Shown in pieces: positions 32,437 through 43,992 of a DNA stretch of 64,000 nucleotides. Each line of letters starts with the position of its first letter. Within the stretch, counting starts at the first letter, position 1. The position numbers and the translations under genes were made by a program. This DNA comes from an uncultured beta proteobacterium (GTDB taxonomy: Bacteria; Pseudomonadota; Gammaproteobacteria; Burkholderiales; Burkholderiaceae_C). The notes beneath the pieces were generated by a model. It made no database searches. It saw only the letters and a program-made list of their open reading frames with translations, and was not told where the DNA came from. The stretch spans positions 1,663,945 through 1,727,944 of the forward strand of contig CAVXMS010000003.1 in assembly GCA_963763035.1 (NCBI GenBank), read 5' to 3'.

Positions 32437-32595
32437 TCAATCTCCGTTTATCAAACTCAGGAACTTTTTCACGTAAACCGGCTTGATCGGTCGGTGCGCC
32501 GGCACTGGCAGCATTTTGCCATCTGAACTTTTGCTTGATGAGCACAAGCGAGGTCGACATCGGAGCACTGAAGCGTTCGGGAGAATGAATGGGGC
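32437..32595 (-). pseudogene. degenerate hicA-like toxin remnant upstream of hicB
   Basis: A 52-codon open frame ends 4 nt before the hicB ATG. Its C-terminal half (GKMLPVPAHRPIKPVYVKKFLSLINGD) aligns by eye with the HicA C-terminus (E. coli ..RRSVMPRHPCDEIKEPLRKAILKQLGL). There is no ATG near the 5' end, the frame is closed by TAG at 32596-32598, and the conserved GSxH region reads CSSS. Confidence 0.3.
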
Positions 32596-32626
32596 CTATG
32601 ATGCCAAAGAATTCAGGGAGGTTGGC

Positions 32627-33589
32627 ATGAGCGAGCTTGTCAGGCTGTATCGGTACAAAAGTTTACTGAGCGATCGGCGCGCGGTATCAAGCCAGGAGCT
32701 GATGGCTGCGCTTGAAATCTCACCCGCCACCTTCAAGCGCGACCTGGCCAAGCTGCGCGACCAGTTGCATGTGCCGATCAAGTTCAACCGTGAGCTTGGC
32801 GGCTATCAAATGGAGCCGGGCCACAGCGACAGCGAGCTGCCCGGTCTCTGGTTCAGCCAGGAAGAAATTCTGGCTCTGGTCACCATCCAGCAACTGCTGG
32901 AACAACTTGAGCCCGGCCTGCTGGGCGCCAAGCTGCACCCGCTGCAAGAACGCCTGACCCAGTTGATGGACAAGCATGGTTTGGCGAGTCAGGACGTGGC
33001 CAAACGCATCCGCATCGTGCACGCCGGCAAGCGCCGGGTCATCGCCAAATCGTTTGAGGCTGTGGCCGCCGCCACGCTGGCACGCAAGCGTCTGAAGATC
33101 TGGCACTTCAGCCGGCAAAACGGAACGACAACGGAGCGCGAAGTGTCACCCCAGCGCCTGGTGCACTACCGCGACAACTGGTATCTGGACGCCTGGTGCC
33201 ATCTGCGCGATGAGCTGCGCAGTTTCAGCATTGATGCCGTGAGCCAAGTTCAACTATTGGACTGCCCGGCGCGCGACGTCAGCGATGCCAAACTGGATGC
33301 GACTTTCGGCCCCGGTTACGGTATTTTCTCTGGCGACACCGTCCGCTGGGCACGTCTGCGCTTCACGTCTGAGCGCGCCCGCTGGGTGGCGCGAGAGCAG
33401 TGGCACCCGCAGCAACAGGGAACGGTGCAAGCGGACGGCAGCTACCAGCTGCGCATCCCCTACAGCGACCACCGCGAACTGATCATGGACATCCTCAAAC
33501 ACGGCGCCCACTGCGAAGTGCTGGGGCCGCCCAGCCTGCGTCAGACCGTGGCACAGGAGGTGGGGAAGATGGCAAAGAAATATTTTTGA
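32627..33589 (+). CDS. WYL-domain transcriptional regulator (wHTH-WYL-WCX architecture)
   Basis: 320 aa from the ATG at 32627. N-terminal HTH (VSSQELMAALEISPATFKRDLAKLRDQL), central WYL domain (VHYRDNWYLDAWCHLRDELRSFSIDAV) and a C-terminal extension. It lies 83 nt upstream of cas3 on the same strand. Confidence 0.8.
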   Translation: MSELVRLYRYKSLLSDRRAVSSQELMAALEISPATFKRDLAKLRDQLHVPIKFNRELGGYQMEPGHSDSELPGLWFSQEEILALVTIQQLLEQLEPGLLGAKLHPLQERLTQLMDKHGLASQDVAKRIRIVHAGKRRVIAKSFEAVAAATLARKRLKIWHFSRQNGTTTEREVSPQRLVHYRDNWYLDAWCHLRDELRSFSIDAVSQVQLLDCPARDVSDAKLDATFGPGYGIFSGDTVRWARLRFTSERARWVAREQWHPQQQGTVQADGSYQLRIPYSDHRELIMDILKHGAHCEVLGPPSLRQTVAQEVGKMAKKYF

Positions 33590-33672: not shown

Positions 33673-35925
33673 GTGTCAGAACCATTGGCCCATTCGGGCG
33701 GGCATTTGTTGGCAGAGCATCTGCAGTCTGTGGCGGGCATGGCTGCCGGGTTTTCTCAAACGTTTGATGCCGCTACGGTTACCCAGCGCTGGGCTTATCT
33801 GGCAGGCTTGTGGCACGACCTTGGCAAATACCGGCCCGGCTTTCAGCGCTATGTGCGGCTGGCTGACAACCCGGATGCGCACATTGAAGGCAAAGTGGGT
33901 GGGCGCGAAAAAACCCACTCTGCCGCTGGCGCACTGTGGGCAATACAGCAATTGAACCAGCCGAACCGCCCTTACGGCAACATCCTCGCTTACCTGATTG
34001 CAGGCCACCATGCAGGTCTGGACGATTGGGATGGTGGGCTGAAAGAACGACTGCAAAACGACGACGCCCAACAGGAGCTGAATGAAGCCTTGGCAGCTCA
34101 TCCCCCCGCCAACCTATTGGCGCATGGCGATTTGGTGGCACAGATTCCCGGTGGTGCAAATGGCTTTGCCTTGTGGGTGCGCATACTGTTCTCTTGTCTG
34201 GTCGATGCCGATTTTCTGGACACCGAAGCGCACTTTGATGCGGGCAAACCCGCCCGCCGCGAAGGCTTCCCCACGCTGGCGCAAATGCGGCTGGCGTTTG
34301 ATGCCCACATGGCGGCACTGCCGGTGGCTGAGACACCGGTCAACACCCTGCGGGCCGACATCCTGCGCCAGTGCCGCGCCAAGGCCGCATTACCTGCGGG
34401 TTTCTTCTCGCTCACCGTGCCCACGGGCGGTGGCAAAACCCTGTCCAGTCTGGCGTTTGCGCTGGAGCACGCACAAACGCATGGCAAACGCCGCGTTATC
34501 TACGCCATTCCCTACACCAGCATCATTGAGCAAACGGCAGACGTGTTCCGTGGCGTGTTCAAGGCACTGGGCGACGAGGTGCTGATCGAGCACCACAGCC
34601 AGGCCGATGCTGCGGAAGAAGACGAAACCGCCCGCAGTCGCCTCGCGTGCGAAAACTGGGACGCGCCGCTGGTGGTCACGACCAACGTGCAGTTGTTCGA
34701 GTCCCTGTTCGCCGCCAAAACCTCGCGCTGCCGCAAGCTGCACAACCTGGTGGGCAGCATCATCGTGCTGGACGAAGCGCAGCAACTGCCGCCCGCGTTT
34801 TTGCAGCCGATTCTGGATGTGCTCAATTTGCTGGTGGCGCACTACGGCGTGACCGTGGTGCTGTGCACCGCCACCCAACCCGCGCTCAACAGCACCACCT
34901 ATTTCGATGCCAACAAGAACCTGCGTGGCTTGGAAAATGTGCGCGAGATCATCGACAGCCCCGATGCCTTGTTTGATGCCCTCAAGCGCGTGGATGTAGA
35001 GCTTCCGCCCGACTGGACAAGCCCCACCGCCTGGGTTGACATTGCCAAGCAACTCGGTGCCGAAGACTGCGTGCTGGCCATCGTCAACACCCGCAAGGCC
35101 GCCCGAGAATTGCAGCGCCTGATGCCTGCTGACACCTTGCACCTGTCGGCCTTGATGTGCGGCGCACACCGTAAGGATGTTATTGCGCACATCAAAGAGC
35201 GCCTGAAAGCCAAACGCGAGGGGCACGACCAGCAGCCCCTGCGTGTGGTCAGCACCCAGTTGGTGGAGGCGGGGGTAGACATTGACTTCCCCGTGGTCTA
35301 CCGCGCCTTGGCCGGGCTTGACTCCATTGCCCAAGCCGCTGGCCGTTGCAACCGCGAAGGGCGCATGGCCGGCAAGGGCCGTGTGGCAGTGTTTGTGCCG
35401 CCAGAGCGGGCACCGCTGGGCCATCTGCGTAAAGGCGCTGATGCCTGTATCTCCACCTTGCACGGGCAGTCACACGACCCGCTGGCCCGTGCACTGTTTG
35501 ACCGCTACTTCAAAGAGTTCTACCACTCGGTGGAGTTGGATGCCAAAGAAGTCGTCAAGAAACTCACCATCAACGATCGCAAAACCCTGAGCGTGCAGTT
35601 CCGCACCGCTGCCGAAGCGTTTCGCCTGATTGACGATCAAGACAGCGCCACCGTGGTGGTGCGCTACGCAGAACAACGCGACGAGATTGAAAAGCTGCTT
35701 GGGATATTGGTCGCCGAAGGCCCGCAGCGTTGGCTGATGCGCAAGCTACAGCGCTACACCGTCAGCATCCACAAACGGGTGGCCGACAAAATGCTGGCAC
35801 AAGGCAGTTTGACGCTTCCCATGCCTGGACTTTATGTACAAGTGAATGCAGAAAATCTATATGACCCCATGCTCGGTTTGAAGCCCGATGATGATGTTTA
35901 CAACCCCGGTGGCTTTGCTATTTGA
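33673..35925 (+). CDS. cas3: type I-C CRISPR-associated nuclease/helicase Cas3
   Basis: 750 aa with an N-terminal HD domain (LWHDLGKYRPGFQ, AGHHAGL), helicase motif I (VPTGGGKT) and motif II (VLDEAQ). GTG start at 33673. Confidence 0.93.
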   Translation: MSEPLAHSGGHLLAEHLQSVAGMAAGFSQTFDAATVTQRWAYLAGLWHDLGKYRPGFQRYVRLADNPDAHIEGKVGGREKTHSAAGALWAIQQLNQPNRPYGNILAYLIAGHHAGLDDWDGGLKERLQNDDAQQELNEALAAHPPANLLAHGDLVAQIPGGANGFALWVRILFSCLVDADFLDTEAHFDAGKPARREGFPTLAQMRLAFDAHMAALPVAETPVNTLRADILRQCRAKAALPAGFFSLTVPTGGGKTLSSLAFALEHAQTHGKRRVIYAIPYTSIIEQTADVFRGVFKALGDEVLIEHHSQADAAEEDETARSRLACENWDAPLVVTTNVQLFESLFAAKTSRCRKLHNLVGSIIVLDEAQQLPPAFLQPILDVLNLLVAHYGVTVVLCTATQPALNSTTYFDANKNLRGLENVREIIDSPDALFDALKRVDVELPPDWTSPTAWVDIAKQLGAEDCVLAIVNTRKAARELQRLMPADTLHLSALMCGAHRKDVIAHIKERLKAKREGHDQQPLRVVSTQLVEAGVDIDFPVVYRALAGLDSIAQAAGRCNREGRMAGKGRVAVFVPPERAPLGHLRKGADACISTLHGQSHDPLARALFDRYFKEFYHSVELDAKEVVKKLTINDRKTLSVQFRTAAEAFRLIDDQDSATVVVRYAEQRDEIEKLLGILVAEGPQRWLMRKLQRYTVSIHKRVADKMLAQGSLTLPMPGLYVQVNAENLYDPMLGLKPDDDVYNPGGFAI

Positions 35926-35934
35926 AGGAATGCC

Positions 35935-36588
35935 ATGCCCAGTTTTTGCCTCGAAGTCTCAGGCCTATTCGCCTGCTTTACCCGCCCGGAAATGAAGGTG
36001 GAGCGCGTCTCTTACGACGTGATGACCCCTTCCGCTGCCCGCGCCGTGTTTGAGTCCGTGCTGTGGAAACCAGCCATCCGATGGCGGGTGCATCGCATTG
36101 ACGTGCTCAAACCCATCCGCTGGATCAACTTGCGGCGCAATGAAGTCAGCGCCGTGGTGTCCACGCGCAATGTGCAGCAGGCCATGACGGCTGGTAGCGG
36201 CACGCTGGGCCTGTACATTGAAGACGAGCGCCAGCAACGTGCGGGCTACTTCCTGCGCGATGTGGCCTACCGCATCCATGCCGATTTGTCGCTGGCACCG
36301 GGCTGCACCGAACCTTTGATGAAATACACCGAGATGTTCACCCGCCGCGCCAGTAAAGGCCAGTGCGTGAACCAGCCGTATATGGGCTGCCGCGAGTTCG
36401 CGGCGGACTTCCGCCTGGTCACGGCTGATACACCGCCCGCCACGCCCATTGGTGACACCCGTGAGCTGGGCTGGATGTTGCACGACCTGGACTTCACCCA
36501 CCCCGCTGACCCGCAGTCGCGCTTTTTCAACGCCAAGCTGGACAAAGGTGTGGTGCAGGTTCCTCCATTTGAGGAGGCACGCGGATGA
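35935..36588 (+). CDS. cas5: Cas5d (type I-C pre-crRNA endoribonuclease / Cascade subunit)
   Basis: 217 aa with the Cas5d signature N-terminus (ACFTRPEMKVERVSYDVMTPSAARAVFESVLWKP). Confidence 0.9.
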   Translation: MPSFCLEVSGLFACFTRPEMKVERVSYDVMTPSAARAVFESVLWKPAIRWRVHRIDVLKPIRWINLRRNEVSAVVSTRNVQQAMTAGSGTLGLYIEDERQQRAGYFLRDVAYRIHADLSLAPGCTEPLMKYTEMFTRRASKGQCVNQPYMGCREFAADFRLVTADTPPATPIGDTRELGWMLHDLDFTHPADPQSRFFNAKLDKGVVQVPPFEEARG

Positions 36589-38360
36589 TTTTGCAAGCCC
36601 TGAATGACTACTACCGCCGCAAGTGCGACGACCCCGATCCGGCGCAGCGCCTGCCCATGTTCGGGCTGGAGCAAAAGGAAATCCCCTTCCTTCTGGAGAT
36701 CAGCCCCGAGGGTGAATTGCTGCAGTTGCGTGACACCCGCGAGTTGAATGGGAAAAAGAAAGTGGCCCGCGTTTTTCGTGTGCCCATGGGCATCAAAAAG
36801 ACCTCTGGCGTGGCCGCCAATTTGTTGTGGGACACCTTGGAATACGTACTGGGTGTGGACACCAAGGGCAAGCCTGAGCGCGTGGCCGAACAGCATGCCG
36901 CCTTCCGCGCCCGCATCGCCGCGCTGCCCGAGACAGTCCGTGAGGATGCAGGCATTCAGGCCGTGACGCGCTTTCTGGATCACATCGACTTGGCGCAGTT
37001 GGCGCGTCAGCCCGCCTGGGCCGATGCGCTGGAAGGCAATGCGGTGCTGAGCTTTCGGCTGCACGGTGACCTTGATCTGGTGTGCCAGCGGCCAGCCGTG
37101 GTGAATGCGGCCCTGAATGTTTCCACTGGCGACGATGCACCCCAGGCGATGTGTTTGGTCACGGGTGAGTTGGCCCCGGTAGAGCGCCTGCATGCCTCCA
37201 TCAAAGGCGTGTGGGGTGCGCAAACATCGGGGGCGAATATCGTCTCGTTCAATGCGCGTGCATTCGAGTCGTATGGCAAGACGGAGCGCCAGGGTGACAA
37301 CGCCCCGGTTAGCCGTGCCGCAGCCTTTGCCTACATCACCGCGCTGAACCACCTGCTGCGCAAGGACTCGACCCAGCGGATTCAGGTGGGGGATGCGTCC
37401 ACCGTGTTTTGGGCTGAAAAGCAGGATGCATTCGAGGACATTTTTGGGGACATCTTCAAGGACAACCCGGATGACAGCACTACCGCTGTTCATGTATTGC
37501 TCAATGCGGTTCAAAGTGGAAAATGGGGTACTTCTGATGAGAACACTCGCTTTTATGTCTTGGGTCTGGCCCCCAACGCGGCGCGTATCAGCATTCGTTT
37601 CTATCACTGCGTGACCTTGCGCGAACTCGGCGCACGCATTGCCCAACACTTTGAAGACCTGTCGCTGGCGCGTGGCCCCCATGACCCCCAATACCCCTCG
37701 CTGTTTCGCCTGCTGGCAGCGGTGGCGGTGCAAAACAAGGCCGACAATATTCCGCCCAATTTGGGTGGCTCAATAATGGATGCCATCTTTGCCGGGGTGA
37801 ACACGCCTTACCCCAGCCTGTGGCTTAACGCCGCTGTGGGCCGCTGCCGGGCCGAACAAAACGTCAATTACCTGCGTGCTGCGGCCATCAAAGCCTGCAT
37901 CAACCGCCAGATGCGCAACGCCCGACCCTCATCATCCACCCCATCCCTAGAACAGGAGTTTTTGCCCATGCTTGATCTCAGCAACCCCAACCCGGCATAC
38001 CGTCTGGGACGGCTATTTTCCGTGCTGGAAAAAATCCAGGAAGAAGCCAGCCCCGGCCTCAATGCCACTATCCGTGACCGCTATTACGGCGCGGCCTCCA
38101 GCACGCCGGTGGCGGTGTTCACCACCTTGCTGCGCCTGAAAAATGCCCACCTCAAGAAGCTGACTCCAGGGCGTACTACCACGTTTGAGAAATTGCTGGG
38201 CGAAGTGCTCGGGCCTGTAACCGATTTTCCCAAACATTTGCCGCTGCCAGACCAGGGCCGCTTTGCACTGGGCTACTACCACCAGCGGCAAGACTTCTTC
38301 ACCAAAAAATCTGACGCCTCCACCAACACACCCACACCCACGGAAGGAACCCCAGCATGA
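36585..38360 (+). CDS. cas8c: Cas8c (Csd1) large subunit
   Basis: 591 aa with a Csd1-type N-terminus ([12 protein letters not shown]). It sits between cas5d and cas7. ATGA overlap with cas5. Confidence 0.88.
37968..38360 (+). CDS. cas11: candidate internally translated Cas11c small subunit (nested in the cas8c 3' end, same frame)
   Basis: In-frame ATG at 37968 (codon 462 of cas8c), preceded by AGGAG at 37954-37958 with a 9-nt spacer. It would yield a 130-aa product ([24 protein letters not shown]...). Confidence 0.5.
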
Positions 38361-39358
38361 GCCTCGATCAACAACTTGCCAACCGCTACGACTTCGTTCT
38401 CATTTTTGATGTGAAGGACGGCAACCCCAATGGCGACCCCGATGCGGGCAACATGCCGCGTCTTGACGCCGAATCCGGCCACGGCTTGGTGACCGATGTG
38501 TCGCTCAAGCGCAAGGTGCGCAACTTTGTTGGGCTGGTTAAGGATCAAGATCAAAGCGTTCCAGTGGATGGTGAGAAACGCTTTGAAATCTACGTGCGTG
38601 AGAAGGCCATTCTGAATCATCAGAACCAGCGCGCATACGCTGCATTGAACCTGGATGCGGTTGAAGCACCAGCAGAAGGTGATGTCGCTGGAGCAGCAGA
38701 AGAAGCCGACGCAAGGAAGAAAAAGCCAGCCAAAGAAAAACGCAAAGGCAGCGCCGATGAGGTCGGCCAGGCGCGCAAATGGATGTGCCAAAACTTCTTT
38801 GACGTGCGCACCTTTGGCGCTGTCATGTCCACCGGTGTGAACTGCGGCCAAGTGCGTGGCCCGGTGCAGTTCACCTTTGCCCGTTCGGTGGAGCCCATCG
38901 TGGCGCTGGAGCACTCCATTACTCGCATGGCCGTTGCCACCGAAGCCGAGGCGGAAAAGCAGCAGGGCGACAACCGCACCATGGGCCGCAAGCACACCGT
39001 GCCCTATGGCGTGTATTTGGCCCACGGCTTTGTGTCGTCGTTCCTGGCCAAGCAAACCGGGTTTGGTGAGGACGATCTGGAGTTGGTGTTCCAAGCCCTG
39101 GCGCAAATGTTCGAGCACGACCGCTCAGCCGCACGCGGCGAAATGTCCACACGCGGGCTGTATGTGTTCAAGCACGACAGCGAACTCGGCAACGCCCCGG
39201 CCCACGCTTTGTTTGACCGCCTCAAGGTTGAACCCAAAGTAGAGGGCGAAGTGGCCCGCAGCTTTGATGCGTATTCGGTGGCGTTTGACGGTCAGAGTCT
39301 GGCCGTGGGGCAATCCGTTCAGCCCGCCCCTGGCGTGACCTTGACTAGGCACTGCTGA
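38357..39358 (+). CDS. cas7: Cas7c (Csd2) backbone subunit
   Basis: 333 aa with the Csd2 signature [29 protein letters not shown] overlap with cas8c. Confidence 0.9.
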
Positions 39359-39370
39359 TCGGAGTGCCGC

Positions 39371-40216
39371 ATGAAAATCCTGCCCACCGAATTCGACGGT
39401 CAATCCATCCGCCGCGTGTACGACGAAGACACGGAAACCTGGTGGTTTTCGGTGATTGACGTGGTGCAGGTGCTGACGGACAGCAACAACGCCAGGCGTT
39501 ACTGGTCTGACCTCAAACGCAAGCTCGCGCAAGAAGCGGGTTCTGAGCAACCGTACGAAAAAATCGTACAGTTGAAATTGACAGCACCGGACGGCAAACA
39601 ACGACTGACCGACGTTGCCACCGCTGAGAGTCTGCTGCGCATCGTCCAGTCCATCCCCAGCCCCAAAGCCGAGCCCATCAAGCTCTGGCTGGCCAAGGTT
39701 GGCTATGAGCGCATGCAGGAAATGACCGACCCCGCTCTTTCGCTGGACAGGGCGCGCCAGACCTGGCAACAGCATGGACGCAGCGACAAGTGGATTGCCC
39801 AGCGCATGACCGGGCAGGAAACGCGCAACAAGCTCACCGACTACTGGAGCGAGCACGACATCAAAAAGGGCAGCGAATTTGCCATCCTCACCAACATCAT
39901 CCATCAGGAATGGGCGGGCGTGAGCGTGGTGGAGCACAAGGACATGAAGGGCCTGAGCAGCCACAATCTGCGCGACCACATGAGCGAGGCGGAACTCATT
40001 TTCACGGCGCTGGCTGAGTTATCCACCCGCCAGATTGCGCAGAGCGTAGATGCCACCGGCATGCCGCAAAACAAAACCGCCGCCAAGGCTGGTGGCCGCA
40101 TTGCCCGTCAGGCGCGCAACCAACTGGAAAGCCAGACCGGAAAATCGGTGGTGAGTGGTGCCAACTACCTGCCACCGGTTGCGAAGAAGGCCTTGAAGTC
40201 ACCGCGCAAGGCGTAG
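39371..40216 (+). CDS. Bro-N domain / DinD-like protein embedded in the cas operon (non-canonical component)
   Basis: 281-aa ORF. The GGAG at 39361-39364 lies 6 nt before the ATG. The N-terminal ~110 aa reads as a Bro-N-like domain (FDGQSIRRVYDEDTETWWFSVIDVVQVL..RYWSDLKRKL..ESLLRIVQSIPSPKAEPIKLWLAKV). The C-terminal half resembles the DNA-damage-inducible DinD family (HNLRDHMSEAELIFTALAELSTRQI..GGRIARQARNQLESQTGKSV). It starts 12 nt after cas7 and ends 26 nt before cas4. Confidence 0.75.
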   Translation: MKILPTEFDGQSIRRVYDEDTETWWFSVIDVVQVLTDSNNARRYWSDLKRKLAQEAGSEQPYEKIVQLKLTAPDGKQRLTDVATAESLLRIVQSIPSPKAEPIKLWLAKVGYERMQEMTDPALSLDRARQTWQQHGRSDKWIAQRMTGQETRNKLTDYWSEHDIKKGSEFAILTNIIHQEWAGVSVVEHKDMKGLSSHNLRDHMSEAELIFTALAELSTRQIAQSVDATGMPQNKTAAKAGGRIARQARNQLESQTGKSVVSGANYLPPVAKKALKSPRKA

Positions 40217-40242: not shown

Positions 40243-40884
40243 ATGGCAGCTGAGCTTGATCAAATCCCTCTGTCCGCCCTGCAGCACTGGCACTACTGCC
40301 CGCGCCAATGCGGACTGATTCATCTGGAGCAGGTGTTTGACGACAACGTCCACACCTTACGTGGTCAGGCAGTGCACGCCAAGGTAGACCAGCCCGGTGT
40401 TGAAACGGCCAAAGGCGTTCGCGTGGAGCGCGCATTGCCGCTGTGGCACGACGAGTTGGGTTTGGTTGGCAAGTCTGATGTGGTGGAGTTTCTGGCTGGC
40501 GGTGTGCCCTATCCAGTGGAATACAAACATGGCAGTCGCAACAAAGCAGCAGACATTGCGGCTTGTGATGATCTGCAACTGGCGGCCCAAGGCATGTGCC
40601 TGCAAGCCATGACTGGCAAGACAGTGAACGAGGGCGCCCTCTACTACGCCACCTCAAAGCGTCGTCGCGTGGTGGACATCACCGAACAACTGCGCACTGA
40701 GGTCGCGCAAACTGCGGATGCCATTCGCCAAATGCTGGCCAGCGGCGAGTTGCCCCCGCCCCTGGGGGCAGAGCAGGCCGCCAAGCGCTGCAAGGCGTGT
40801 TCGCTGCTGGAGCGCTGCCAGCCCCAAGCCACACACGCCGGTTTGGTGGCTGCTCGCGCGGCGCTGTTTGACCCCGACGCATAG
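40243..40884 (+). CDS. cas4: Cas4 (RecB-like exonuclease, Fe-S cluster)
   Basis: 213 aa with an N-terminal Cys (HYCPRQC), C-terminal CKACSLLERC, and the RecB motif DVVEF..YPVEYK. Confidence 0.9.
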   Translation: MAAELDQIPLSALQHWHYCPRQCGLIHLEQVFDDNVHTLRGQAVHAKVDQPGVETAKGVRVERALPLWHDELGLVGKSDVVEFLAGGVPYPVEYKHGSRNKAADIAACDDLQLAAQGMCLQAMTGKTVNEGALYYATSKRRRVVDITEQLRTEVAQTADAIRQMLASGELPPPLGAEQAAKRCKACSLLERCQPQATHAGLVAARAALFDPDA

Positions 40885-40896
40885 CACAGGATACGG

Positions 40897-41925
40897 ATGC
40901 AACTCCTCAACACCCTTTACGTCACCACTGCGGATACCTATCTGCGCCTGGACAATGACACCCTGCGCGTCGAGGTGGAGAAAGAGACCAGGCTGCGTGT
41001 GCCACTGCACCACTTGAGCGCGGTCGTGTGTTTTGGCCACACGGGCTTGTCGGCCCCACTCATGCACCGGCTGGCTGATGACGGTATTGCGCTGGTGCTG
41101 CTGGACGATAACGGGCGTTTCAAAGCCAGGCTAGAGGGTGCGGTCACTGGCAATGTGCTGCTGCGCCAAGCCCAGTTTCAACGCGTGGCAGATCCAGTGT
41201 TTACGCTGGACATGGCACGCGCTTGTGTGGCCGGTAAGATCAAAAACACACGTCAGGTATTGCAGCGTGGCGCCCGTGAGGCCAAGCTTGAAGACGAGGC
41301 CAAGGCGTTGACCCGCCTGGCAGACGATCTGGCTGCTGGTCTGCGTGCGCTGCCAGAGGCCACCGACCTGGATGTCTTGCGGGGTATTGAGGGTGAGGCC
41401 GCGCGCCAGTATTTCAGCGGCCTCAATCTTCTGGTGCGCTCTGACCAACGTGCAGCCTTTGCCATGGACGGGCGCACGCGCCGCCCGCCGCGTGATCGTT
41501 TCAATGCCATGTTGTCGTTCCTGTATGCCATGTGGATGAACGATTGCCGCTCTGCGCTGGAGGCTGCGGGCCTGGACCCACAGGCTGGTTTTTTGCATGC
41601 CTTGCGCCCCGGCCGCGCAGCTTTGGCGCTGGACTTGATGGAAGAATTTCGCCCATGGGCAGACCGGCTGGCGCTGACCTTGATTAACCGGGGTCAACTG
41701 GAGGCTGACGATTTTGCGCTGCGCGAAGGTGGCGGTGTGTCACTGGAGCCGGATGCCCGCAAGGCCGTGGTGGTGGCGTATCAAGAGCGCAAGCGCGACG
41801 AGATCAATCACCCATTGCTGGCGCTGTCTGTTCCCCTGGGTCTGGTGCCCTTGGTGCAGGCCCGCTTGATGGCGCGCGCCTTGCGCGATGATGGCGCACC
41901 GTATGTGCCGTTTGTGGCCAAGTAA
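40897..41925 (+). CDS. cas1: Cas1 integrase (type I-C)
   Basis: 342 aa, Cas1 family throughout (NTLYVTTADTYLRLDNDTLRV, GIEGEAARQYF, NAMLSFLYAM). Confidence 0.95.
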   Translation: MQLLNTLYVTTADTYLRLDNDTLRVEVEKETRLRVPLHHLSAVVCFGHTGLSAPLMHRLADDGIALVLLDDNGRFKARLEGAVTGNVLLRQAQFQRVADPVFTLDMARACVAGKIKNTRQVLQRGAREAKLEDEAKALTRLADDLAAGLRALPEATDLDVLRGIEGEAARQYFSGLNLLVRSDQRAAFAMDGRTRRPPRDRFNAMLSFLYAMWMNDCRSALEAAGLDPQAGFLHALRPGRAALALDLMEEFRPWADRLALTLINRGQLEADDFALREGGGVSLEPDARKAVVVAYQERKRDEINHPLLALSVPLGLVPLVQARLMARALRDDGAPYVPFVAK

Positions 41926-41934
41926 GGAAGTCTC

Positions 41935-42225
41935 ATGCTGGTGCTGGTTTGTTACGACGTGAGTACCGAAACCAAGGCCGGGCGCCGCCGCTTGCGCCGG
42001 GTTGCCAAAGTTTGCGAAAGTACCGGGCAGCGGGTTCAAAAGTCGGTGTTTGAATGTCAACTGGACCTCGCGCGGTTCGAGACGCTTGAGCGAGAATTGC
42101 TGGCCGAGATCGATGCGAAACAAGACTGCTTACGCCTGTATCGCATACCGGAGACACGCGGTTTTGAAGTTCTGGAGCACGGTGCCTTCAAGGCGGTGGA
42201 CTTTGATGGGCCGCTGGTGCTCTGA
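41935..42225 (+). CDS. cas2: Cas2
   Basis: 96 aa with the canonical [11 protein letters not shown]-terminus and QKSVFEC motif. Confidence 0.92.
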
Positions 42226-42450: not shown

Positions 42451-43992
42451 GGATCGCCCGGCAGTGATGCCGGGCGCGGATTGAAACATGAGTTGTCGTC
42501 ATCGTGGGCTCCTGGGAAAAAAGGATCGCCCGGCAGTGATGCCGGGCGCGGATTGAAACCGCCGTGATGCCCTTGTAGTAACTCTCGGGCAGTTGGATCG
42601 CCCGGCAGTGATGCCGGGCGCGGATTGAAACGTACGACGCGCCTCCTTAACCTGGGCAGACTCTGGGATCGCCCGGCAGTGATGCCGGGCGCGGATTGAA
42701 ACATCCCGCCAAATCACTCCGACGTACTTCCGGTACGGATCGCCCGGCAGTGATGCCGGGCGCGGATTGAAACCAAATACCGACATTACTATCAGCATTT
42801 GATTGAGGGATCGCCCGGCAGTGATGCCGGGCGCGGATTGAAACAAATATCAGAGCAGGCAGCCGGTCCGGCACCCTAGGGATCGCCCGGCAGTGATGCC
42901 GGGCGCGGATTGAAACTAGTTAAGGGAACTGACTACGCTAACAGTCGTTTGGGATCGCCCGGCAGTGATGCCGGGCGCGGATTGAAACGATGTCCGTCGT
43001 TGTAGTGAACACGGCACCACTGGCGGATCGCCCGGCAGTGATGCCGGGCGCGGATTGAAACGTTTACGACATGCCGTTGATCTCGCTCGCCGGTGGGGAT
43101 CGCCCGGCAGTGATGCCGGGCGCGGATTGAAACACTCAGTTTTACTCAGGTGAGCGCACCAGCCAGTGGGATCGCCCGGCAGTGATGCCGGGCGCGGATT
43201 GAAACTAAATGGACCCATTCTGTAAAACTCTGGTATCCGGGGATCGCCCGGCAGTGATGCCGGGCGCGGATTGAAACAAAATCAGCCTGTTGCCAGGCTT
43301 GGCGGTATTGCGGGATCGCCCGGCAGTGATGCCGGGCGCGGATTGAAACGAATAATTAGCCACGTTACCGCCAGGAGAAACATGGATCGCCCGGCAGTGA
43401 TGCCGGGCGCGGATTGAAACAAGTGGGGGGTCCATCCTCTCACATGGTTGAGCGGATCGCCCGGCAGTGATGCCGGGCGCGGATTGAAACAAAACAAAGG
43501 TCAGAATTGCAAGAGCAATAAAAGGGGATCGCCCGGCAGTGATGCCGGGCGCGGATTGAAACGGCGAGTGCAGTAGTACATCCCACGAAGCGTACTCGGA
43601 TCGCCCGGCAGTGATGCCGGGCGCGGATTGAAACATTTCTTTTCCTTCGGCGGTACGAGTGTCACTGTGGGATCGCCCGGCAGTGATGCCGGGCGCGGAT
43701 TGAAACAAAGCAAGATTCATTGCGCCTCCGCCTCACGAGCGGATCGCCCGGCAGTGATGCCGGGCGCGGATTGAAACAGGTATCCCAGGCTGTACGACCA
43801 CGGCCCGGAGCGGGGATCGCCCGGCAGTGATGCCGGGCGCGGATTGAAACCGCGAAAAGATTGGCGCACCAGTCAGGGAAGCATGGATCGCCCGGCAGTG
43901 ATGCTGGGCGCGGATTGAAACGCGGCGATCACTGACGAGCCGCCAGAGGAAATTGGAATGGCCCGGCATTACTGCCGGGCGCAGATTAGGTC
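42451..43992 (+). CRISPR. type I-C CRISPR array: 21 intact 37-nt repeats plus 1 degenerate terminal repeat, 21 spacers of 33-36 nt
   Basis: The repeat GGATCGCCCGGCAGTGATGCCGGGCGCGGATTGAAAC recurs every 70-73 nt, starting at 42451, 42523, 42595 and so on up to 43885. It has an 8-bp stem (CGCCCGGC/GCCGGGCG), a 6-nt loop and an 11-nt 3' tail CGGATTGAAAC. Repeat 21 carries a C->T change that keeps a G-U pair. The last unit (43955-43992) is degenerate. The orientation matches the cas operon. Confidence 0.97.

Follow-up and report, generated by a model that had tools for sequence, protein, structure and literature searches.

A 64,000-nucleotide stretch of DNA from an uncultured beta proteobacterium (contig CAVXMS010000003.1; the whole stretch is referred to below as the window) contains a complete type I-C CRISPR-Cas system in which an open reading frame (ORF) of 281 amino acids separates the interference gene cas7 from the adaptation gene cas4. 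The ORF encodes a protein of the DinD family. Close relatives of the gene occupy the same junction in other type I-C systems, a second clade is embedded in type I-B systems, and further homologues lie within restriction operons. We tentatively favour, at short of even confidence, the explanation that the protein is a break-handling accessory or a passenger of immune systems built on translocating nucleases, and that it is not a core Cas subunit.

The host locus comprises a WYL regulator, cas3, cas5, cas8c and cas7, the ORF, cas4, cas1 and cas2, and a CRISPR array (Table 1). The ORF starts 12 nt past the cas7 stop, with the GGAG 6 nt before its ATG, and its last nucleotide (40216) is separated by 26 nt from the cas4 ATG (40243). 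These distances, and the length of the ORF, were given to the base in a first-pass annotation made from the sequence alone. That annotation had also seen no terminator, inverted repeats or transposase nearby, and we likewise found no sigma70-like promoter or terminator-like site flanking the ORF and saw no transposase or inverted repeats at the cas7-ORF-cas4 junction. The short gaps, together with the lack of a promoter or terminator of its own, are consistent with co-transcription of the ORF with the cas genes. Its base composition (GC 0.590, and 0.762 at third codon positions, GC3) is close to that of the cas genes (GC 0.577-0.617, GC3 0.66-0.757), which bears out the impression recorded in the first pass. 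A recent insertion was rejected on the grounds of this cas-like composition, the absence of direct repeats or scars when filled and empty junctions were compared, and the age of the clade to which the gene belongs. The hairpin that had been described across the cas7 stop (GGCACT 39348-39353 / AGTGCC 39363-39368) does exist, with a folding free energy of -13.5 kcal/mol, but its significance did not hold up. The z-score was -1.7, 12 of 200 shuffled sequences folded equally well, and the 6-bp stem was not found in the homologous junctions of related loci; it was thus rejected as a regulatory element.

The N-terminal region of the protein is a Bro-N domain (PF02498; residues 14-109, E = 2e-9, with a bit score of 38.4 where the curated cut-off is 25.6), as first read. 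The whole protein matched the PADLOC model PDLC04920 of PDC-S13, a candidate single-gene defence system, over residues 7-273 of 281 (E = 9e-120), as well as phrog_15286, to which no function is assigned (E = 1e-85). E. coli DinD (PcsA), which also has a Bro-N domain (E = 1.5e-7), matched the sister PDC-S13 model PDLC04919 at E = 2e-121 and the model of the window protein, PDLC04920, at E = 2e-16. Comparison of the window-family profile with the DinD-family profile by hhalign gave a probability of 94.7% (E = 6e-8) for residues 116-257 against DinD residues 92-248, and a probability of 82% when DinD was represented by its single sequence. In BLASTP, the ORF protein and E. coli DinD were 21% identical over 154 amino acids (E = 0.002). 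The NCBIfam DinD model did not match the ORF protein, and the C-terminal half alone returned nothing significant from Pfam and NCBIfam, with only a weak hint of DdrC (NCBIfam, E = 0.039). The earlier reading of the C-terminal half as DinD-like is therefore upheld at the level of profiles and of PDC-S13 membership, while the pairwise similarity is weak.

Because the homology is evident between profiles but the pairwise identity is only 21%, the ORF protein is regarded as belonging to a sister subfamily of DinD and not as its orthologue. The two proteins have a common layout, in which Bro-N is followed by a helical C-terminal domain that is homologous between them, and are of similar length (274 amino acids in E. 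coli DinD, 281 in the window protein). Both are grouped under PDC-S13, in different sub-models, and each family is highly conserved across distant taxa. In three plasmid matches, from Hymenobacter, Planktothrix and Bacteroides (H22, H23 and H25), the C-terminal domain (query residues ~103-246) was fused to a KilA-N domain and not to Bro-N, which indicates domain shuffling.

An AlphaFold2 model of the ORF protein, built on 59 diverse homologues, had a mean predicted local distance difference test score of 92.2 and a predicted template modelling (TM) score of 0.79. In this confident model, the N-terminal domain is of mixed alpha/beta type and the C-terminal domain (residues 122-256) consists entirely of helices. 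In a Foldseek search of the PDB, the sole significant matches were six chains of DdrC from Deinococcus radiodurans (PDB 7QVB, 7UDI, 8U0G), with E-values from 5e-7 to 4e-5 and a probability of 1.0, and these matches covered both domains (244-256 aligned columns). No other PDB structure matched the model with E<0.2. Searched against the PDB, the family profile also matched the C-terminal domain of DdrC (E = 8e-5, positions 142-257 against 114-222). Across the family, R14, D30, Y44 and R90 of the Bro-N domain are invariant. The conserved residues of the C-terminal domain are R145, R152, K190, K193, R201-D202, E208, E216, R249 and E253, of which R145, R152, K190, K193 and R201-D202 align with DdrC R120, R127, R164, R167 and R173-D174, respectively. 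On the C-terminal profile match and the Foldseek probability, DdrC is remotely homologous to the DinD/PDC-S13 family, which is widespread.

DdrC forms an asymmetric homodimer, by which nicks or double-strand ends are sensed and trapped in pairs (PMC11347143). Mutagenesis has placed its core DNA binding in the C-terminal domain (R128, R142, R164 and K170), and lesion recognition is attributed to R14 and R81 of the N-terminal domain (PMC11347143). The protein is damage-induced, and its authors reported no homologues outside Deinococcus (PMC11347143). In these last two respects DdrC differs from the window protein, with which it has a similar fold over both domains and C-terminal sequence homology. 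No paper tying DdrC to DinD or Bro-N was found in our literature search.

The cas7-ORF-cas4 order was present in Rhodoferax ferrireducens T118 (L002), Polaromonas sp. P1-6 (L003), metagenome contigs and one further genome locus (L010), and the WYL gene occupied the same position at the related I-C loci L002-L005. A metagenome scan covered 80 I-C loci whose Cas7 was 63-89% identical to that of the window. Full copies of the ORF were found at 16 of these, in a gap of ~900-980 bp; two other loci were cut by contig ends and three carried truncated remnants. The I-C-embedded copies (the window, L002-L005, L010 and the 16 metagenome copies) formed one clade in a neighbour-joining tree which, like the other trees used here, is without bootstrap support. 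This indicates that the gene was captured a single time by the betaproteobacterial I-C lineage and co-diverged with it thereafter. The ratio of nonsynonymous to synonymous substitution rates (dN/dS) relative to the window copy was 0.07-0.26 for the ORF and 0.03-0.16 for Cas7, Cas4 and Cas1; the ORF is thus under purifying selection, somewhat more relaxed than that on the Cas proteins.

The T118 locus (L002:3974-12859) showed a marked split in identity to the window, with Cas3 at 35% and Cas7 at 31%, the ORF at 90% and Cas4, Cas1 and Cas2 at 93-94%. The split points to an exchange of the interference module, the breakpoint of which would be just upstream of the DinD-like gene; in T118 the ORF remained with the adaptation genes through this exchange. 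Across 18 loci, ORF distances correlated with those of Cas4 at rho ~0.6 and with those of Cas7, Cas1 and Cas8c at 0.35-0.47, a modest difference. One member of the I-C clade (L011:653-1489, 80% identical) had no cas genes around it; either this copy has left a cas locus or mobility of the gene continues. In Polaromonas P1-6 (L003:3808-12895), cas3, cas5, cas8c and cas1 are fragmented, possibly by operon decay or by assembly errors, and only cas4, cas2 and the DinD-like gene are unbroken. The intactness of the last was not used as evidence, as by our own estimate a 0.85-kb gene would, at the density of disruptions in this locus, be expected to stay intact by chance about half the time.

A second cas-embedded clade was found in type I-B systems of Campylobacterota (Arcobacter, Aliarcobacter, Sulfurimonas and Sulfurospirillum; loci L007 and L170-L179). 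Its members share 47% identity with the window protein and lie far from it in the tree. The gene order is cas3-ORF-cas4-cas1-cas2 in Aliarcobacter, Sulfurospirillum multivorans and others, and cas3-ATPase-cas4-ORF-cas1-cas2 in Arcobacter cloacae, where the AAA_14/DUF4143 ATPase (L007:5218-6477; L170:5227-6495) matched PADLOC PDC-S01 (E = 1e-102). In Sulfurimonas, cas3 and the ORF are followed directly by a long CRISPR array (L173:8340-14663; 30-nt repeat CTTGAACCGATACATGTAATGTATTGAAAC), and at L173 the 7 kb of sequence downstream of the ORF gave no calls of adaptation genes. All eight of the sampled proteins that were at least 79% identical to a cas-embedded copy sat in cas operons, while one at 76% stood alone (L180, see below). 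As the two clades are distant in the tree and the Cas proteins of the I-C and I-B systems are only 25-30% identical, the comparison favours two independent captures.

Homologues from the subfamily of the window protein were also found nested in restriction operons, in which a gene of the same family is likewise inserted within the operon of an immune system with an ATP-dependent translocating nuclease. Restriction-modification components formed a visible minority of the neighbours at the 80 genome loci described below. A homologue lies between type III mod and res, with overlapping reading frames, at two loci (L047:6224-7045, L028:9977-10837), and directly upstream of type I hsdR at two others (L016:3316-4161, L041:1-756). 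Another follows hsdS, with a GyrA/ParC-like topoisomerase subunit as the next gene downstream (L037:2223-3098), and one follows a type IIG enzyme (L023:2426-3301). These six homologues are 62-73% identical to the window protein. In the literature, Btr190I of Bibersteinia trehalosi is a dinD-hsdS fusion (PMC4996451), and in another genome a dinD-type gene and RhuM lie between the type I hsdR/M/S core genes (PMC9881135). In addition, the N-terminal part of a PADLOC model of type I specificity subunits matches DinD. The window gene differs from these cases in that its host operon is a CRISPR-Cas system (I-C here, I-B elsewhere) and in that the insertion is clade-wide and long-lived.

Table 1. Coordinates of the type I-C locus in the window, and of a recurrent ORF at the equivalent junction of other I-C loci (positions with an L prefix refer to those loci).
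Feature	Position	Strand	Evidence
WYL-WCX-HTH transcription regulator, upstream of cas3	32483-33589	+	Pfam WYL E = 6e-19, WCX E = 4e-19, HTH_11
cas3 (HD+DEAD+Cas3_C)	33673-35925	+	Pfam
cas5d	35935-36588	+	Pfam
cas8c/csd1	36585-38360	+	Pfam E = 3e-180
cas7	38357-39358	+	Pfam E = 2e-104
cas7-ORF junction	39348-39370	+	cas7 stop TGA 39356-39358, GGAG 39361-39364
DinD-family gene, 281 aa, ATG start	39371-40216	+	PADLOC PDLC04920, AlphaFold2 model
Bro-N domain, residues 14-109	39410-39697	+	Pfam PF02498
Helical C-terminal domain, residues ~116-257	39716-40141	+	hhalign vs DinD family, profile and Foldseek vs DdrC
cas4	40243-40884	+	Pfam
cas1	40897-41925	+	Pfam
cas2	41935-42225	+	Pfam
CRISPR array, 21 repeats, unit ~GGATCGCCCGGCAGTGATGCCGGGCGCGGATTGAAAC, period ~71-72 nt	~42451-43921	+	Tandem Repeats Finder and repeat-core search
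Recurrent slot ORF, 187-208 aa	L153:6934-7497, L154:6892-7518, L156:5376-5939, L159:1266-1859, L163:945-1550, L167:1732-2337		

The repeat-core search of the array gave 21 matches against 0 expected. The strongest terminator-like match in the region (window 42527-42548, minus strand) corresponds to the palindrome at the centre of the CRISPR repeat unit, CGCCCGGCA...TGCCGGGCG, and not to a separate terminator.

Taken as a break-handling accessory or passenger, the protein would, by analogy with DdrC, act as a dimer in which the C-terminal domain binds duplex DNA and the N-terminal domain recognises nicks or ends. The gene, captured once by the betaproteobacterial I-C lineage, sits in a permissive slot where the interference module gives way to the adaptation module, and would be transcribed with the cas genes. 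The protein could then bind nicks or ends made by Cas3, or by HsdR or Res of type I and type III restriction systems, or breaks in the host chromosome, and modulate what follows. Possible downstream effects include RecA/RecBCD processing, self-damage and the supply of prespacers to Cas4-Cas1-Cas2, and immunity exerted by Cas3-, HsdR- or Res-type effectors may benefit.

A number of results weigh against this explanation. The first concern the analogy with DdrC and with DinD. The TM-scores of the Foldseek matches to DdrC were modest (0.29-0.52) and the root-mean-square deviations large, and a profile of the N-terminal domain alone gave no DdrC match in the PDB, so that sequence similarity between the two N-terminal domains is undetectable. 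At the positions of the DNA-binding residues R128, R142, R164 and K170 of DdrC, the window protein has N153, S168, K190 and S196, that is, one basic residue of four; the family most often has N (24) and then K (19) at position 153, R at 168 and K at both 190 and 196, and the adjacent R152 and K193 are conserved. In E. coli, dinD stands alone and is LexA-regulated and SOS-inducible (PMC6590174), whereas the window gene lies within a cas operon and has no LexA box. No exact box (CTGT-N8-ACAG) was present in the window, and matches with one mismatch numbered 11 against 19.5 expected in the window, none of them upstream of the ORF or cas3. SOS control of the ORF was therefore rejected.

The second set of opposing results comes from the distribution of the family, which is large (clustering at 50% identity gave 8741 clusters with E<=1e-3 and 619 with E<=1e-30) and was confirmed at a minimum of 597 loci (>=597) in species-representative genomes. 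Neighbourhoods were examined at the best 80 of these loci by score, which is not a random sample; neighbouring genes were taken from a crude longest-ORF call, and cas genes were sought with I-C and I-B queries within 10 kb. The proteins at the 80 loci share 56-80% identity with that of the window and span Proteobacteria, Bacteroidota, Planctomycetota, Acidobacteriota, Nitrospirota, the candidate phyla radiation, and methanogenic and methanotrophic archaea, a spread which indicates horizontal mobility with strong conservation. Cas genes were present at one locus (L010) and absent from the other 79. The 122 immediate neighbours fell into a heterogeneous set of 143 Pfam families, in which Cas7 occurred once. 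The DinD family as a whole is thus not preferentially located in cas loci. The first-pass annotation had proposed that homologue neighbourhoods be scored for proximity to cas genes; enrichment was not seen family-wide. The association with cas operons extends across the I-C clade and originated anew in I-B.

At seven loci (L014, L027, L038, L051, L067, L079 and L084), two DinD-like or Bro-N paralogues were adjacent or a few genes apart, and PDC-S05, another Bro-N candidate of PADLOC, was among the neighbours. The stand-alone homologue at 76% identity, from a Puia sp. (L180:7001-7831), is flanked by polA and uvrB and oriented against both of them, an anecdotal link to DNA repair.

The third set concerns the cas7-cas4 junction itself. 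In a Cas7 tree, ORF-bearing loci were interspersed with loci whose junctions were empty, held remnants or held other inserts. The ORF has been lost at L099, L105, L116 and L110, leaving gaps of 22, 25, 22 and 62 nt, respectively; decayed remnants were present at L091, L098 and L106; and at L096 and L109 the ORF has been replaced by HicA or DUF433 cargo. The closest Cas7 relatives of the window include both an empty junction (L099) and a HicA-bearing one (L096). It had been set beforehand that a lack of enrichment of homologues next to cas genes, together with close relatives carrying the operon without the ORF and with clear insertion scars, would speak against a functional association. In part this is what was observed: relatives without the ORF do exist (L099, L105 and L116, 22-25 nt), and scars are not visible. 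Loss, decay and replacement within the ORF-bearing Cas7 clade show that the ORF is dispensable for the operon.

Toxin-antitoxin modules (RelE with an Xre/MqsA-like antitoxin, DUF433 with DUF5615, and HicA) occupied the cas7-cas4 gap in other I-C loci (L096, L109, L114-L117, L119, L120, L125, L130, L132, L147 and L165), and position alone is therefore no argument for a Cas-specific function. A recurrent ORF of 187-208 amino acids fills the slot in a different I-C subclade (Table 1), with other small ORFs elsewhere. In the two members of this recurrent ORF that were scanned (L154 and L167), there was no significant Pfam match and no PADLOC match. The possibility that the slot ORFs are diverged relatives of the DinD-like gene was rejected, since the family hidden Markov model matched only the L106 remnant and there were no PADLOC matches. 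The equivalent I-B gap of Arcobacter cloacae, too, holds the PDC-S01 ATPase next to the ORF, which fits passive cargo. As sister I-C junctions are empty, decayed or filled with toxin-antitoxin genes, the junction is regarded as a cargo slot at the boundary of interference and adaptation, and the ORF as one of the various dispensable passengers that it can carry in place of one another. Like the toxin-antitoxin and other passenger genes of cas loci, it is optional at this slot and has been lost repeatedly; unlike them, it is a single and much larger gene, conserved across the I-C clade under purifying selection. The ORF was not itself considered a toxin-antitoxin module, being a single ORF in which no toxin or antitoxin Pfam domain was matched.

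The strongest rival explanation, which we consider somewhat unlikely, is that the ORF is an autonomous defence gene or passenger of the PDC-S13 type, self-contained and active, against phages or selfishly, independently of Cas proteins. Cas and restriction operons would serve it only as a safe and expressed landing site, the boundary of the modules being tolerant of insertions. The preferred explanation is not cleanly separable from this one, and is ranked ahead of it. The match to a PADLOC candidate family, the location of most family members outside cas loci in varied contexts, the repeated loss and decay of the ORF, and the non-cas context of L011, a member of the cas-embedded clade, are all in keeping with autonomy. 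So are the range of other genes in the slot (RelE/Xre, DUF433/DUF5615, HicA and unannotated ORFs in I-C, the PDC-S01 ATPase in I-B) and the 47% identity of the ORF between the I-C and I-B clades, against 25-30% for the Cas proteins. However, the protein has no recognisable effector domain (nuclease, pore or NADase) and only domains of DNA-binding type, and no paper on PDC-S13, nor any published phenotype, was found in the literature searched. The purifying selection under which the ORF has long diverged together with the operon, the reliance on operon transcription signals and the two independent captures directly upstream of cas4 also argue against a purely autonomous gene.

Stronger forms of a Cas-linked function were judged less probable. 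It is unlikely that the protein is a genuine accessory of DinD/DdrC type, recruited independently by I-C and I-B systems as a sensor of nicks or ends, that would act at the hand-over from Cas3 to Cas4-Cas1-Cas2 or guard the chromosome from self-damage and self-spacers. A dedicated adaptation co-factor, which would hand ends or Cas3 fragments to Cas4-Cas1-Cas2 or cap chromosomal breaks against the acquisition of self spacers, is more doubtful again. The ORF directly precedes cas4 in the I-C loci and in most of the I-B ones, lies between cas4 and cas1 in Arcobacter cloacae, travels with cas4-cas1-cas2 in T118 where the interference module differs, and correlates best in distance with Cas4; DdrC, moreover, traps pairs of DNA ends (PMC11347143). 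Against this, the Sulfurimonas I-B loci have the order cas3-ORF-array and lack adaptation genes in the vicinity, most of the family is independent of cas genes, the ORF is missing from close relatives whose adaptation module is intact, and the advantage in correlation is small (0.6 against 0.35-0.47).

The first-pass annotation had treated Bro-N proteins as hallmarks of phages and mobile elements. This was not borne out for the full-length family, which is mainly cellular. Only four phage records, all small, were found, and full-length members were present on 324 of the 2.9 million IMG/VR contigs, all at <=66% identity; plasmids contributed 26 records, all at <60% identity. Viral structures matching the ORF model were generic two-domain Bro-N/KilA-N proteins. 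A phage origin was rejected on the phage and IMG/VR counts and the generic nature of these fold matches. The N-terminal Bro-N fold is held in common with phage antirepressor-type Bro-N/KilA-N proteins, whereas their C-terminal ANT/KilAC domain was not found in the ORF protein by Pfam; given also its place in a chromosomal cas operon and its rarity in phage collections, the protein was not assigned to the phage antirepressor type.

A DNA-binding transcription regulator, or a switch that controls the cas operon or prophages in the manner of an antirepressor, is improbable. Antirepressor or regulator is a common annotation for Bro-N and KilA-N proteins, the T118 homologue is named 'prophage antirepressor' by NCBI, and there was a weak match to phrog_2657, 'transcriptional regulator' (E = 0.03). 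However, besides lacking an ANT/KilAC domain and being rare in phages, the protein occurs at loci that already have a WYL regulator, and the same highly conserved protein is present in many phyla and in operons unrelated to one another, a distribution that speaks against a locus-specific operator. Marginally less probable still is a DinD-type RecA antagonist, which would dismantle RecA filaments and so block the rescue of invader DNA, or damp the SOS response during Cas3 or restriction activity: DinD is counted among the regulators of RecA filaments (PMC4457935, citing Uranga et al. 2011), but the window protein is only 21% identical to DinD and falls in a different sub-model, and such an activity overlaps with the preferred explanation rather than excluding it.

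The family, its status as a candidate for defence and its nesting in restriction operons are already on record. The conserved embedding in I-C and I-B cas operons, the behaviour of the junction as a cargo slot and the link to DdrC appear undescribed in the literature searched. In agreement with the first-pass annotation, no cas-associated gene of Bro-N/DinD type was found there, and the surveys of CRISPR-linked genes consulted were without Bro-N or DinD. As Rhodoferax ferrireducens T118, Sulfurospirillum multivorans and Arcobacter cloacae, which are cultured and sequenced, carry the arrangement, the proposed function is directly testable.

Even if the ORF is a passenger, the boundary between interference and adaptation in I-C and I-B systems is a recurrent cargo slot for DinD-like genes, toxin-antitoxin modules, the PDC-S01 ATPase and unannotated ORFs, genes of the DinD family are associated with translocating-nuclease immune systems of three kinds, and DdrC has remote homologues far outside Deinococcus. 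If the protein instead handles breaks for Cas3 or for Cas4-Cas1-Cas2, it would represent a new class of type I CRISPR accessory that ties the sensing of DNA damage to immunity, and would provide the first functional clue for E. coli DinD, PDC-S13 and DdrC at once. Were it a sensor of nicks or ends, the same principle would explain why DinD is fused to, or nested in, type I and type III restriction operons, and DinD and DdrC may share an ancestral role in managing the breaks made by translocating nucleases.

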